In this document: one piece after another, positions 24,001 to 30,000 of the stretch
Position numbering within the stretch: the first letter of the stretch is position 1
Layout of the letters: each line of letters opens with the position of its first letter
DNA from: Escherichia coli
Lineage (GTDB): Bacteria; Pseudomonadota; Gammaproteobacteria; Enterobacterales; Enterobacteriaceae
Assembly: GCF_024298765.1 (NCBI RefSeq)
Contig: NZ_CP101211.1
Strand: one strand, 5' to 3'
Length of the DNA: 64,000 bases
Position numbers: made by a program

Positions 24001-27000
24001 TCTGAACAACGATAGGCGTCACGCTGAACGGGTCTTCCATGTAGGCATCGGCCAGGCTGTTCAGGTGTTCCACAACGTGAGGCATTGAATAGTAGAGCTC
24101 GCCCATACCGGCCGTGCGGGTGTTAAAGCCTTCCTGCTCTACAACAACCGAAGGGTCAATGATAAGGCCGTTGCCTTTACGGGCACCGTTACCAGTGCGT
24201 TCCAGGTAACCACGAAGGCTGATTTCGTTGCTGTTGTTTTTTACTTCAGTTTCGATTGCGGACATTTTTGTTCTCTTTTTTGGTTGGTTGTTTAACTGCG
24301 CTACAACACAACAATACCAGGTTCGACATTTTTCCTAATAGGTTGCGGAGAAGAAAAAGTAACTTTTTTTAAAAATTTTCCTGAGGCAATACTACTCGAT
24401 CCGTCCGTTTTAAATCTTCACAACAGTGGGCCGTTTTTACGTTTAAGCAAAATAACTGGTTCAGAAGGTGACTCAGAGAGAAAAGTTACTTTTCCGGTTG
24501 TCTGGGCCAGTGATGGGAGAGTGGCAGGACAGGAATGGCTAAACCGGTGCGGGTCTCTTGTAAGTCGCAGGGGATTCAGGAGATATAGAGGTAAACTGGT
24601 ACGTTCAGTTTTTGGATTGAGCCGGGCTTTTGGCCCGGGCTTAAGGAAGCAGAAATTTGAACGAACTGGCAGGTAATGCTTTATGCCGCCGACAGCTGGC
24701 CGTCAGTGCTTTGCTGTTCTGGTTTGACAGTTGGGGGATAACCGGCAGTTAGCCGCTGGCATTCCGCATCACAGAAAGCCCTGAGGTTGCTGAAGACGGA
24801 CTCCATGAAATCAGCATGAGCATACGAGTCTACAGGACGTGTCTTGTTATCTTTCATCTTGTTCTCCTCAATCATTATTAAAACCAGCGGATTTAGTTTC
24901 TGGCGCTCCATCTGCTGACCGGCTTTCCCAGAGAGCAGCGATGTGTCGGGTTCTTTTTCTCATTTTATCGTTTTCATCGGGCCCATCCGGGCGTATAAGA
25001 GACCGATTTGGCATGTTTAGGAAACGTACTGGCGTAATTAAAAGCTGAGGTTGGATTTGGAATAAAAGGATGCTTTTCCCGTTTGTCGGGTCTTTCGCCA
25101 CCGCTGCACGATGATTCTGTCAGGCATTCTGCGCCCTCCCAGGCTGCACATCTGGAAACAAGCGTTGGGATGTTCCCTTCCCCTGCTCACCGTAGAAAGA
25201 TCGGCAAGTCCCGACGGTCGTTCCGTACGAGCCGGGTCCAAATAATGAATAAATAAAACGCCGCTTCAATTGTATTGACAATAGAAGTCAGGAGGATCAT
25301 AGTGTCATTCATGGTGCGGCTTTCGCACCACCGCCCCGGCGGTACCGGGCAGAACTGGAGTACCTCATGAAACTTTCCCGTCAGACGACTTCTGATACTT
25401 CTGTTGATGGCCGTTCACGCGCATATGCCTGGGGCCGTGTCCATTATTTCATTATCGAACATGCACCAATGGCTGAGCTGGTCGCTATTGACGAGCTGCT
25501 GGAAAAAGCTGGCTGGAGCAATGACGGCTGTCCGAACTATGAGAAAGATGACGAGTTTGGTAATGCTGGTTACAGCTGTGGTTACTGGATCGATATTGAC
25601 AGCGTGGGAAGCTTCAAGGCTGACTACAAACGTCTTAAGGGGGAGATTAGTGCGCATATCGCCTCAAAGGCGGCAGAGGTGGAGATCCGCGTACTGGACT
25701 CGATGTCCGACAAAGAATGTAAAGATGTTGCCTCGGTGGCATCTACTGTTCGCCGTGACTTACGTACGCAGTCCGAATCGCTTCATTCACTGCGTACAAT
25801 CGTAACGGTTGATCATTACAATCCCTATGTGACCACCAGCCGCCCGCTGAGCATTTCCGCCTGGACACTTATCCACGACTGTCTGAAAACAGGCACCATC
25901 AATGACGTCTGTTCACGGTTGAGTTCATTAATCCTGCACTCTGAAGCCGCGATTGCCCGTTGTAAGGGAAGCTCCGACTACTCTTCGGAACACGCTCAGC
26001 TATCGTTTTTTGCTGGTAACGACTATGTCACCAGACGCACCCTTGTTGATGCAGCTCACGAAGAGGCTCTGCGAATGAACCGCCGCTTTGATGAACGCAT
26101 TGCAATGAACGCGGATTCTGATGCCAGAAGGCTCCAGTGCGAATTCAACCTTAGCAACCATGTCGTACAGCGTAGGACCGTTGAATCTGCTCATATCCAG
26201 GCACTCAATGAAGACGTCACCCGTTCACAGGCGGAACCACGCTGCCCTGGAAAGCTTCTTCTGAATATGACCAGTCATGAGGAAGTGCGGGACTCACTGA
26301 GCGCCTGTTAGTCCAGCGACACCCCCTGCGGCTCTACTACCGGGCCGCAGTCTGCTCCTGCCCAGATGGTGCCAGTGGTGTAATGAATTTGTTTAATAAG
26401 GCTAAGTATGATGAATAAAGAACAACTAATCGACAAACTGGAACGCGTGGTATGTGGTCAGTACTCCTACGAAATGCAGGAGCTTGCGTATTCGGCCCTC
26501 TGCTGCATTAAAGGCACCCCGGACGACTGCGCTAAGTTCCCTGTTACGCGTCCGCTGCCTGACACCTTAGTGGACGTATGGGACGAAATCGGGCAATACC
26601 TTGGCACAGGCAAAGCCATTGAAACTCGCAGTTGCGGCGTTTCGCTTCTGCTTCATGGACACTGCTACGATTCAAATCATGTGCTTTACTGGCGCAATGC
26701 TGGCGCACTTCCAGCAGCTTGCGATACGCCACTGGCTGGTGGGTCTCGCAAACTGTTCACCTGCTCAGCCTGTGGAGTGGACGGTCTGGATGAACCACCT
26801 GAAACCAGTTGCCACTGCTGCACAGAGGGGGCCCACTGGGTTGAGAGCAGGCTCTTCACCTCCGGGCAGGCAGACCCTGAAGAATTTAGACCCGTGGCGG
26901 TCGTGAAAGAGTGTGCAGGCTCAACGCCGGATGATCGGCTCATCTGGAGTGTGATTGAACAGCTCAACGGCGAACTGGCGGAAGGCGATAAACTATTTAA

Positions 27001-30000
27001 GCGACGCTGACAGATCACGGCAGCATTTATAACAGACGAACTCCAGAATAATTTAAAGCAACCATGAACATGAAAAAGCCCAAAGCTGCATTACAGAATG
27101 CCATGAAAGAAGATGTGCCAGCTGTGACACAGATTCAGATGCGATCTACGGTTTCCAGAAAGGTTCGCTATGTAAAACAGGCAAATCGAGAGGGTCTGAA
27201 ATTATCTGAGTGGATGTCGCGGCATCTCGACGCTGTCTGTGATACCGCAGATGAGATTCATAAAGGCAAACGCTCAACTCCGGTTGCGCCTGGGAAGATT
27301 CCCCCAGAGGTATACCAGGTGATATACGATCAGTGCGGCGGGTTCGTGGAGTGTGATGCTAATGCCCAGGTTATCTGGGAAGCCTGCCGTAATGCCATTC
27401 TTAACGGAGACAAAGGGTAAACGGCAGGTATCGCCTGTCATTTTACCCTTGTGAGGACAATACTGATGAACCATGAGAGCCGAACTGTATACCTGAACAC
27501 GGCCATTGAGGCCCTGCTGAAAGCTGAGGCGGCTCTGAACGATCTGGCATTAGCCTATGAGCTTAAACCTGATGAAAAGGCAAGCGCATGCCATCCCAGA
27601 ACCGGCACACTTTCCACTGCGTCCCAGGTAAAAAAACTCCGCCGTGTCCTTGAGAAGCAGAAGGTATGAAGGGCTGCATCAGCCAGGCCCGGATATAAAT
27701 ACATGCTCTGCCAGGTGAGTACCACTGCCCGGTAGCCGAATGATAAGTTTTGATTTCACGGTTGCAATTTCTCCCTCTGGCATCACTGCTCCACGATGCA
27801 CCCCGATCAGCTTAGCGTCTGAAAATGAAGATGCACCGGACCTGCATGAAGCGGAACGGTGCCCAGCTGAGTGTTTGTGGGCACAATGAACCGCAATTTC
27901 ATGATGGGAATGAAAGATGGCTGGTGGCCCGCTGATATGAACGCTTACCCTGCATAACGTTACTAACCACAATCTTTTCACTAAAAGAAAAAAGGGTTCC
28001 TCCGCTTTAGAGGAACCCTTTCAAAAGGTGCCGATGGCATACTAATCCACACCCTGAAAAGAGGGGGGTTGCCCCCCTCTTTGTCAGCTACTTACCGGAT
28101 TCGTAGGCCAGGATAGCAAATACCTCCCTTGTTCCGTCTTTCATCCGCAACTCGCAAAGCGAGTTTCGTGTGAGCCAGGTGAATATCAACAGCGTTAAAC
28201 AAACTATTAATATGCACAAAACAATGGGTTGGTTCGGCATTTTCATGGCCTTCTTCTCCTTGCATTTAAGCAGGCAAGAGGCTACGCTGTGTGTGACTAG
28301 CATACAGGGGCCTCGGGTTGTACTGACCCCAGAAAGTTGGACAGTTAAACACGAGGCATATAGGTCTGATTCCGATATTCAATTGGAGTCAGACCTTTTA
28401 ATTTCAGGCTAATTCTTCTGCTGTTGTAGTATTCAATATATTCCGTAACAGCATCCTTCAGCTCGCTTATATTACTGAACTCATCAAGATAAAAACACTC
28501 CGACTTTAAGGTTCCAAAGAAACACTCCACCACAGCATTATCCAGACAATTGCCTTTTCTGGACATGCTTTGTTTAATACCATGTTCTTTAAGGATATTT
28601 TGATATCTTCTCATACGATACTGCCATCCCTGGTCAGAGTGCAGAACAGGATGCTCGTGAGGATTAAGCTTTTTGAATGCCTGATCGAGCATATTCTCGA
28701 CCATGTTCATCACTGGTCTTTCCGAAAGGCTGTAAGAAATAACTTCGTTGTTGAAGAGATCTATTACTGGAGACAAATACAGCTTGCGCCCATTGACTGC
28801 AAATTCAGTAACATCGGTAACCCACTTCTCGTTTGGCCGCGTAGCCTTGAAATCTCTTTGGAGAACATTGGGGGCGGTTTGCCCTACCTCTCCTCTGTAA
28901 GAGCGGTATCGCTTGACCTTAATCGCTGCCTTCAGTGAGAGGATTCCCATCAGGCGCTGAACAGCTTTATGGTTAATCTGTTTCCCTTCTCGATGAAGAG
29001 ACAGCGTTACCCTACGGTATCCGTATCGGCCTCTATTCTCATGATAAATCTCACCAATACGCTTTTTAACGTCCGCATACTTGTCAGGCTTGCTGAGAGC
29101 CTTTAGATGGTAATAAAACGTACTGCGCGGTATCTCCGCAGCCCTGAGAAGCTCATCAAGAGGATAAAACTGCCTTAGCTCGTTGAGTACTTTCACTTTT
29201 TCGTGGGATGAGCTAAGGCTTTCAGCTTTTTTAGATACACAAGCCGCGTTTCAAGAAATCGAACTTGCCTTTCAAGATCCTCAATGCGTCGGTCTTTTGA
29301 CAGCTCCAATGCTGATGCCGCTTTTTCTGGATCAACTGATATTGCAATGTTTCTTTTGGTGCCAATCTTGAGCGCGCGTAAACCAGCTTCTCCGCGCTCT
29401 TCATAAACCTTCAGCCACCTGGCTACAGAACCACTACCAGCAAGCATAAAGTGAGCAGCAGCCTGATTAAGGGACATGTGCTGCTCGATCACCGCTTTCA
29501 CGACCTTAATACGCAACTCAGGATCAGCACTAACACCTTTAGGTTTGGGAATTAAACCTTTTTCTCCATGTTTTTCATAGAGGGCAACCCATGTCCTGAC
29601 CTGGGTTCGGGGGACACCAAAACGTGCCGAGATGATCCTGTAACCATCATCAGTAGTGAAGTAGTGATTCACGACTTCAAGGCGCTTTTCAAAAGGGTAT
29701 TTTGGCTTTGACATATCAGGGGCTATTCCATTTCATCGTCCAACAAAATGGGTGCAGTACAGGTTAATTGAAAAATTACTCGGGGCTTTCTGCTTTTACC
29801 ACAGTCAAACAGTGTTACCGCTGGCTGGGGCAAAAGCCTCCAGCACCAGCGTCATTATATCACTCTGCCCTGATCAGCCAAACACCCTGCCTGCATAAAT
29901 CATTGATTTATAATTTATTTGACATGAGTCACTTCCGGTTGTCGGAGACAGTCTTTTTACACTAAAGAAAAGGGTAACGGGCAGCTGCTTGGTCGGAACA

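Follow-up and report, generated by a model that had tools for sequence, protein, structure and literature searches.

A four-gene operon of IncHI2 plasmids that combines a NikA-like ribbon-helix-helix protein with phage-type modules

Phages control anti-CRISPR genes through Aca regulators that are encoded in the same operons. In the acr-aca operons represented by Aca14 and AcrIF25, a promoter with an inverted repeat precedes variable cargo genes and the gene of a DNA-binding protein, and the operons occupy hotspots of mobile elements. The N-terminal domain of AcrIF25 is described as having a ribbon-helix-helix (RHH) fold and as dispensable for anti-CRISPR activity, and has been proposed to act as a built-in regulator (2026 preprint). 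Anti-defense islands have also been described in the leading regions of conjugative plasmids (Samuel et al. 2024, PMC11541004), and the RHH fold class further includes relaxosome proteins of the NikA type and antitoxins such as RelB and ParD. Here a locus is described that shares features with each of these systems: an operon of four genes, referred to as the island, at positions 25367-27669 on the plus strand of a 64,000-nucleotide stretch (the window) of contig NZ_CP101211.1 of Escherichia coli (assembly GCF_024298765.1). The window is the backbone of an IncHI2 plasmid. The third gene of the island encodes a protein with a NikA-like RHH domain that is predicted to control the promoter of the operon, and the other genes contain modules with relatives among phage proteins.

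The four genes encode proteins of 314 amino acids (p314, 25367-26311), 200 amino acids (p200, 26408-27010), 118 amino acids (p118, 27064-27420; the NCBI PGAP start is at 27070) and 67 or 72 amino acids (p72, ending at 27669). The ATG at 27466, which yields 67 residues, is the more likely start of p72 than the upstream GTG at 27451, which yields 72, because a GAGGA Shine-Dalgarno sequence is found there and PGAP uses the same start. The genes lie on one strand, spaced 97, 54 and about 45 nt apart, and a GGAG (25357-25360) is situated 7 nt ahead of the ATG of p314. A comparison of p72 with its homologue in plasmid R27 revealed 20, 16 and 43 differences at the first, second and third codon positions, respectively; the corresponding numbers against plasmid pNDM-CIT were 25, 27 and 59 for p118 and 24, 19 and 53 for the N-terminus of p314. 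The bias toward third positions shows that these three sequences are truly protein-coding; the comparison covers them and not p200, which has no homologue in IncHI1 and IncHI3 plasmids. The common strand and short gaps, the promoter together with the GGAG, the spread over plasmids and the third-position bias make the cluster a genuine operon, beyond chance. The original prediction had described an operon for three proteins, the last of them small and RHH-like, embedded in minus-strand cargo. The positions of its reading frames and the strand contrast with the neighboring genes hold, and the claim that no other plus-strand island exists between 18 and 55 kb is borne out by PGAP, as applied to an identical plasmid, but p118 had been left out. 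An RHH domain is indeed present, in the N-terminal half of the third gene product, whereas the last gene product, p72, has no detectable DNA-binding fold.

The operon is widespread. Over 4 kb, numerous IncHI2 plasmids from Salmonella, E. coli, Klebsiella and Enterobacter, among them pSTM6-275, are 100% identical to the island region; the matching plasmids are typed as MOBH and MPF-F. When co-occurrence across plasmids was checked, each of the four genes was found at a coverage of at least 80% in about 981-1044 plasmids, and approximately 985 IncHI2 plasmids carry all four. At an identity of at least 99%, p200 and p118 occur in about 970-984 IncHI2 records and p314 in 542, with another 446 at 95-99%.

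Upstream of p314, a sigma-70-type promoter, TTGACA-17-CATAGT (25275-25303), matches the consensus at 10 of 12 positions. Its -35 box is enclosed by the inverted repeat CAATTGT-ATTG-ACAATAG (25267-25284), the predicted operator of the RHH protein, and is followed by a conserved 5' leader (25313-25351) that consists of a hairpin, GGTGCG-N5-CGCACC (25313-25329), and a box, CCCGGCGGTACCGGGCA (25335-25351). Where the pNDM-CIT island starts, the promoter recurs with hardly a base changed. The box is present in exactly two copies in the window, where 0.04 were expected, the second at 55154-55170 on the minus strand, and it is also found in R27 and pNDM-CIT just ahead of the start codon of the DUF5417 gene, the counterpart of p314. 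In both plasmids the leader hairpin shows one compensatory change from C-G to T-A. At the other end of the operon, a GC-rich, terminator-like hairpin (27990-28022) lies between the island and the convergent hok gene; it was scored on the minus strand, that of hok, on which 14 pairs are followed by a T-run. Read on the plus strand, the stem is followed by only a weak TTTCAAAA tail. The island transcript presumably ends at this hairpin.

The exact sequence ATTGT-N4-ACAAT occurs at the start of the island in IncHI2 plasmids, in pNDM-CIT and in a Salmonella contig (L010). In an unrelated contig with a Rep3 replicon (L009), a perfect palindrome, AAAGCTATTGTGTACACAATAGCTTT, which contains the same exact core, precedes a NikA-like RHH gene, and a related form, TCTGTTTGT-CTAC-ACAAACAGA, precedes a long DUF5417 gene that is followed after 3 nt by an RHH gene of the p118 family. 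Among the loci fetched, ATTGT-N4-ACAAT is confined to promoter positions ahead of operons that encode RHH proteins. In R27 both p118 and the repeat are absent within the 14-kb locus read, and p72 follows a different upstream sequence there. The operon thus contains its own RHH gene together with a repeat that encloses the -35 box, and because this repeat recurs ahead of operons encoding the p118-type RHH family in four replicon contexts, autoregulation is argued: as judged from these sequences, p118 probably represses the island promoter through the repeat at 25267-25284. A candidate site within the operon, ahead of p72 (27446-27463), is not claimed; it has 3 mismatches, which is within chance, and is not conserved in R27 and pNDM-CIT.

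p118 consists of a NikA-like RHH domain (residues ~20-60) fused to a C-terminal module with the motif IWxACRxAxL (residues ~75-115). A profile built from the p118 family hits AcrIF25 within its N-terminal domain (8jdh, residues 4-45) with an E-value of 0.0018, and relatives of p118 match the Pfam family NikA-like, with E-values down to 6.7e-9, and also RHH_10. The assignment of p118 itself rests on these relatives and on the profile match. The curated cutoff of the PF21983/RHH_10 family is passed by one relative only, a 68-residue protein of L009 (36.2 bits against 27), the others reaching 15-22 bits. The family alignment (A9) shows a strand, xQIQMRxT, followed by K..RY...A..EGL and xL(S/T)xW, with R27, K33 and W50 invariant; the succession of strand, helix, a G-x-S/T N-cap and a second helix, together with homology to a solved RHH domain, is that of an RHH protein. 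By analogy of sequence, the p118 domain would bind DNA as a dimer and in a sequence-specific manner. RHH relatives of the N-terminal half are encoded in pNDM-CIT, L010 and L009.

The second copy of the leader box belongs to a paralogous cassette on the minus strand (53369-55235). A copy of the island promoter, repeat and leader (55154-55235), which includes TTGTATTGACAAT along with the second CCCGGCGGTACCGGGCA box, is followed by genes for proteins of 174 (o174) and 145 (o145) residues, an 85-residue RHH paralogue (53828-54085) and a protein of 83 residues (o83). The inverted repeat is present as a near copy (55220-55235) in front of this operon, whose RHH paralogue is 57% identical to residues 12-64 of p118. 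None of the proteins of this operon belongs to a Pfam family. The operon is located directly upstream of a gene for an immunoglobulin-like (Ig-like) protein (50575-52992), a member of the rsp family that, going by the title of PMC6764697, is reportedly needed for IncHI conjugation. In pSTM6-275 the paralogous operon is reduced to a 55-residue open reading frame. In pNDM-CIT and L010, homologues of o174 and of the RHH paralogue share one plus-strand island with the DUF5417 gene.

Residues 1-98 of p314 form a DUF5417 domain, which is related to Frd.1 of T-even phages, and the remainder is helical with two repeats of the AHxEAL type. p314 itself exceeds the gathering cutoff of DUF5417 (PF17438) with 24.7 against 23.9 bits (E 2.8e-5, residues 51-91), all eight aligned relatives match the family (best E 5.1e-34), and phrog_1254 matches at 7e-8. 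DUF5417 is found in 684 phage records, mostly of T-even phages; the one phage match that was examined, Shf125875, has the gene next to frd, gene 32 and td, with an annotation that notes its similarity to RB69 frd.1. In the AlphaFold2 model of p314 (mean predicted local distance difference test score, pLDDT, 69.6), most of the first ~200 residues are modeled with confidence, the means of 10-residue blocks being 70-96 except for residues 11-20 and 61-70. The model superposes on an uncharacterized protein of 82 residues from Escherichia phage phiC120 with a TM-score of 0.85. T-even Frd.1 (DUF5417, PHROG 1254) belongs to the same family as the first ~98 residues of p314, with the difference that the phage proteins seen here stand alone (80 and 82 residues; the Pfam model has 91 positions), whereas p314 adds a helical extension of ~215 residues with the AHxEAL repeats. 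Other plasmid versions of DUF5417 add a different module of 189 residues or none. The number of AHxEAL repeats differs among the few full-length relatives, which are encoded by phage JK004 (gp72) and metagenomic contigs. In Cronobacter phage JK004 (L004, 6001-7631), gp72, a p314 homologue of 460 residues, is directly followed by a protein 77% identical to o83; genes that are 28 kb apart on the plasmid (p314, and o83 at 53369-53620) thus adjoin in the phage. A literature search returned no paper that mentions DUF5417 or phage frd.1.

From its N-terminus onward, p200 reads as a pair of helices, an SH3-like beta-barrel (~41-98), a zinc ribbon of the Cys4 type (~113-150) and a C-terminal helix. 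The AlphaFold2 model (mean pLDDT 77.8) shows two helices, a five-stranded barrel (42-97), a three-stranded ribbon (113-150) and a terminal helix. The four cysteines of the pattern CxxC-x12-CxC are conserved in 86-89 homologues (C119 97%, C122 96%, C135 99%, C137 99%), as are H136 (93%) and H143 (76%), and the predicted strands of the ribbon (113-119, 125-127 and 144-150) have a pLDDT of ~84. The original prediction counted about 14 cysteines in CxxC-like pairs and suggested that the protein binds metal. The count was overstated: p200 has 13 cysteines, with one CxxC (C119/C122) and one CHCC (C135-C138), and four of them are conserved. Metal binding is plausible for the single Cys4 ribbon module at residues 113-150 but does not extend to the other nine cysteines, which are unconserved, and a metal-handling or redox protein that employs all 13 cysteines was rejected on these grounds.

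An exhaustive HMMER search yielded 139 relatives of p200, each of which covers one of two modules, ~41-98 or ~105-158. Those sampled include prophage mosaic proteins with DUF551, Ead/Ea22 or dATP/dGTP pyrophosphohydrolase domains and others without a Pfam match. The C-terminal ~45 residues of p118 likewise match the C-termini of prophage mosaic proteins that also contain the zinc ribbon of p200. In one of these, P0090, the p118 module (E 7e-15 within the hit set) directly follows a p200-type ribbon in the same chain, an arrangement indicating that p200 and p118 draw on one pool of shuffled modules. The barrel and the ribbon of p200 and the C-terminal module of p118 recur, at 40-66% identity, as interchangeable units of 40-60 residues in mosaic proteins of enterobacterial prophages; these proteins were judged lambdoid by their Ead/Ea22, DUF551 and dATP/dGTP pyrophosphohydrolase (PF04447) domains alone. 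The island differs in that the modules are split over two genes, one of them fused to an RHH domain, and none of the named Pfam domains is present in p200 and p118. Neither p200 nor p118 matches PF13935 or PF04448 (Ead/Ea22-like, DUF551), which were seen only in relatives that share the other modules. p72 is small and predicted to be helical, with a basic C-terminus. Its sole match in the libraries is phrog_19934 (E 9e-11); no relative was found in the PDB, Pfam or annotated phages, and a search of the PDB with the family profile was empty. p72 is the only island gene retained in IncHI1, IncHI2 and IncHI3 plasmids.

In every IncH plasmid examined, the island occupies a fixed slot between the divergent gene of a ParB-like protein and the convergent hok gene, and the content of the slot varies. 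R27 (IncHI1) retains the leader and the first ~18 codons of DUF5417, beyond which the sequence is out of frame, followed by a p72 homologue with 64% identity. The slot of pNDM-CIT contains eleven annotated plus-strand genes, the last four of which encode a DUF5417 protein of 110 residues, a protein of 189 residues and homologues of p118 (63% identical) and p72 (62% identical); across pNDM-CIT and L010 the island comprises 9-11 genes. In L010, DUF5417 is fused to the counterpart of the separate 189-residue protein of pNDM-CIT (82% identity), and no p200-like gene is present. Homology of p200 to the 189-residue protein was considered and rejected (E 0.24). As modules are exchanged and genes fuse or split at one fixed site, the slot is a recombination hotspot for accessory genes. 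The pairing of a long DUF5417 gene with an RHH gene recurs, with a 3-nt gap, on the unrelated Rep3 replicon, L009. In this part of L009 (5491-7064), a hok-family gene is also present, divergent from the long DUF5417 gene at a distance of ~300 nt, so that hok and DUF5417 are associated outside the IncH plasmids as well.

The reading that is preferred, tentatively and with a little less than even confidence, regards the island as an RHH-autorepressed cassette of phage-type accessory proteins that aid plasmid establishment or counteract host defense. In this model, a single sigma-70 promoter, with its -35 hexamer inside the TTGT-N4-ACAA repeat, would drive the island, and the p118 dimer would bind the repeat and repress the operon, so that expression would come as a burst followed by shut-off. 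This regulatory part is held to be somewhat more likely than not. The model for the shut-off is the Aca control of anti-CRISPR operons, and the role proposed for the RHH domain of AcrIF25. The cargo, made up of the Frd.1-like domain and repeat tail of p314, the barrel and ribbon of p200, the C-terminal module of p118, and p72, would be non-enzymatic modules of a protein-binding type taken from early or accessory genes of phages. By binding proteins of the host or of competing elements, it would help the plasmid to settle in a new cell, through anti-defense or host interference. The kinds of neighboring genes, the kinship of the modules with early and accessory phage genes and the hotspot behavior of the slot make such a role plausible, yet this functional part of the reading is held with distinctly less assurance than the whole and is to be taken as possible rather than probable. 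Compared with acr-aca operons, the island has the strong, repeat-bearing promoter, the in-operon DNA-binding protein, the variable cargo and the hotspot location, and p118 resembles AcrIF25 in that a second domain comes after the RHH domain. It differs in that its host is a conjugative plasmid instead of a phage, the regulator is encoded by the third of four genes, and the C-terminal domain of p118 is unrelated to the Cas7-binding domain of AcrIF25. With the leading-region islands (PMC11541004) it shares a neighborhood of genes typical of such regions, namely hok, ParB-like, orphan methyltransferase, DUF3085 and DUF957 genes, all of which lie on one strand pointing to the oriT (origin of transfer)/relaxase region; the label 'leading region' may apply to this neighborhood.

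Several observations weigh against this reading. None of the cargo proteins matches a known family of anti-defense, defense or toxin proteins or of enzymes in the libraries, the PDB or model comparisons, nor is any island protein homologous to a known anti-defense protein as the cargo of an acr-aca operon would be. Searches of Pfam, PHROGs, NCBIfam and PADLOC with the four proteins returned DUF5417, two PHROGs without a function and noise (ZorB 0.009, LmbU 0.009), and single-sequence searches of the PDB with the island proteins gave nothing significant. The similarity to AcrIF25 spans the regulatory N-terminal domain and not the Cas7-binding domain, and p118 itself has no Pfam match at E-values up to 10 and is below every RHH threshold. 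Taken alone, the inverted repeat is statistically weak, as 2 or more matches with up to 3 mismatches also turned up in 18 of 100 shuffled sequences. The island is on the strand opposite to that of all its neighbors and has an ordinary double-strand promoter, unlike leading regions expressed from single-stranded DNA, and no Frpo-like single-strand fold was found in 24900-25370 (z -0.96 and -1.66 versus shuffles); in both strand and fold it thus departs from the single-strand expression of leading-region genes. R27 conjugates and persists with p72 alone, so that basic plasmid functions do not depend on the other three genes, and near identity across IncHI2 plasmids reflects recent common descent and not necessarily selection.

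One alternative is that the island genes are phage-derived hitch-hikers of no benefit to the plasmid, the slot collecting prophage fragments whose spread follows the recent clonal expansion of IncHI2 plasmids. The near-identical p200, p118 and p314 across IncHI2 records, the phage relatives of all modules, the loss of three of the four genes in R27 and the tolerance of an IS421 insertion beside the operon in most close relatives would all be expected. Nevertheless, p72, p118 and the DUF5417 domain have diverged between IncHI lineages mainly at third codon positions, indicative of purifying selection, the different lineages have kept the promoter, the operator and the leader, and all four frames are intact in the two IS421-carrying relatives that were read; the explanation is rated improbable. 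Just as improbable is a regulatory module of the plasmid, in which the RHH protein and p72 would serve as transcription factors that tune IncHI genes (such as transfer genes, the Ig-like rsp gene or thermoregulated genes) with p314 and p200 as co-factors. The copy of the promoter and leader ahead of the operon immediately upstream of the Ig-like rsp gene would fit this role, given the reported requirement of that family for conjugation, as would the retention of p72 across IncHI1, IncHI2 and IncHI3 and the density in this region of a dispersed palindromic 13-mer resembling the operator of a regulon (see below). The RHH-type repeat, however, is found in the 64 kb only at the two cassette promoters and at none of the transfer-gene promoters, the cargo differs greatly from one IncHI type to another, as would be uncommon among core regulators, and p72, as noted, lacks a detectable DNA-binding fold.

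Still less probable is a toxin-antitoxin or abortive-infection module with p118 as the antitoxin, its RHH N-terminus binding DNA and its C-terminus neutralizing p200, p314 or p72. Such a short C-terminal domain behind an RHH domain is the standard layout of type II antitoxins, one family member weakly matches RelB (E 0.021), the long DUF5417 and RHH genes of L009 are separated by only 3 nt, and hok is nearby in both IncHI2 and L009. No toxin family was matched in Pfam, NCBIfam or PADLOC, though, and there is no obligatory conserved pair: the partner gene differs between plasmids, being p200, that of the 189-residue protein or none. p72 is kept without p118 in R27, and the Frd.1 locus of one T-even phage has no annotated RHH neighbor, so neither p72 nor Frd.1 behaves as a toxin that needs p118 as its antitoxin. 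In the prophage proteins, moreover, the p118 C-terminal module is in one chain with the p200-type ribbon, unlike toxin-antitoxin pairs. Least probable is an accessory of the relaxosome or of DNA processing, that is, a NikA-like RHH protein that binds at or near oriT. It is suggested by the matches of family members to the Pfam entry 'Mobilization protein NikA' and by the distance of ~17 kb between the island and the mobI/traI region. However, each plasmid has two paralogues, each within a variable cargo operon, the cognate repeat overlaps a promoter and not oriT, p118 is missing from this locus in R27, which serves as the reference for conjugative IncHI plasmids, and in MOBH systems the accessory factor is MobI, whose gene is annotated here at 7957-8496. 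A common fold class and profile matches of weak to moderate strength link p118 with NikA, RelB and ParD, but the island is set neither at an oriT nor in a toxin-antitoxin pair of two genes. The RHH-controlled cassette of phage-type accessory proteins remains the preferred reading.

Elsewhere in the window, the Tra1 relaxase operon lies on the plus strand, with mobI followed by the relaxase gene (9234-12386) and traD. Beyond traD there is a long run of small minus-strand genes, among which PGAP annotates no other plus-strand gene. The run includes the genes of the ParB-like protein (23081-24265), hok, DUF3085, DUF957 and HNH proteins, a 3'-phosphoadenosine-5'-phosphosulfate (PAPS) reductase, an orphan DNA methyltransferase and the Ig-like protein; of these, the orphan methyltransferase, hok, the ParB-like gene and the PAPS reductase are typical establishment cargo. 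In experimental evolution, a region of ~56 kb with hypothetical genes was deletable from an IncHI2 plasmid and vertical maintenance was kept (PMC9599605); the region presumably takes in the island. Between the ParB-like gene and the island promoter, a gene for 58 residues (24681-24857, minus strand) is annotated in relatives, is 49% conserved in pNDM-CIT and has no family match. On the other side of the island, a minus-strand frame of 100 residues (27679-27981) is unannotated in relatives and probably spurious. In the top-scoring IncHI2 relatives listed, with 100% identity, IS421 (IS4 family, 1350 bp) is inserted between p72 and hok; the window has no IS421 there (27670-28088), and the four reading frames are intact despite IS421 in the two relatives whose annotation was read. 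An Rfam scan yielded sok fragments near hok as its sole matches. These two partial sok antitoxin RNA matches (28244-28398 and 29685-29848, minus strand) flank a copy of IS150 (28345-29714), which suggests that IS150 was inserted into the hok/sok control region. In identical plasmids, PLSDB/RGI labels a hypothetical protein of 93 residues (30868-31149, minus strand) 'Brucella suis mprF, defensin resistance, 100% identity'. MprF is a large enzyme, too big for 93 residues, and the label looks for this reason like a database artefact.

The palindromic 13-mer AAAAGT(T/A)ACTTTT occurs at 15 sites in the window (4268, 6887, 7328, 7813, 12674, 14404, 19306, 24355, 24481, 38635, 43684, 47896, 53100, 58817 and 61041). 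With up to 1 mismatch, 24 strand matches were counted where 0.27 were expected, a number reached by none of 100 shuffles. About nine sites are 57-222 nt upstream of gene starts, and the genes behind them include mobI and the gene divergent from it (6452-7252), the one that follows traD, the ParB-like gene (with two sites) and the Ig-like gene. The 13-mer is also present in R27 and pNDM-CIT; a literature search found the sequence in no IncH paper. It has the look of an operator for a regulon that spans the plasmid, in the manner of the KorB sites in IncP plasmids.

The genes of the island are already public in about a thousand records, as 'hypothetical' or 'DUF5417', and a search of the literature on IncHI plasmids found nothing on the locus. 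The present analysis adds a module map, places the RHH domain in the third gene product, proposes an operator and brings in the paralogous cassette and the view of the slot as a hotspot. A further-reaching proposal, unlikely on present evidence, is that DUF5417/Frd.1 and its partners (p200, the p118 C-terminal domain and p72) constitute an unrecognized anti-defense or host-takeover set common to T-even phages, prophages and IncH plasmids, which would be housed in a self-limiting cassette under the NikA-like RHH protein and its operator and move as a unit between replicons. If this were true, the variable C-terminal extensions of DUF5417 would set the target specificity.

IncHI2 plasmids are major carriers of mcr-1, mcr-9, extended-spectrum beta-lactamase, carbapenemase and metal-resistance genes. 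About half of their backbone is without annotation, and the operon described here is part of this backbone in roughly a thousand sequenced plasmids. Should the cargo be inert, the locus would be a mere recombination hotspot of little consequence. As a self-regulated cassette of phage-type proteins, by contrast, it offers a small set of candidates for functions in establishment or anti-defense that may be tested also in T4, via frd.1, and the pair of RHH protein and operator may be used to find similar cassettes elsewhere.

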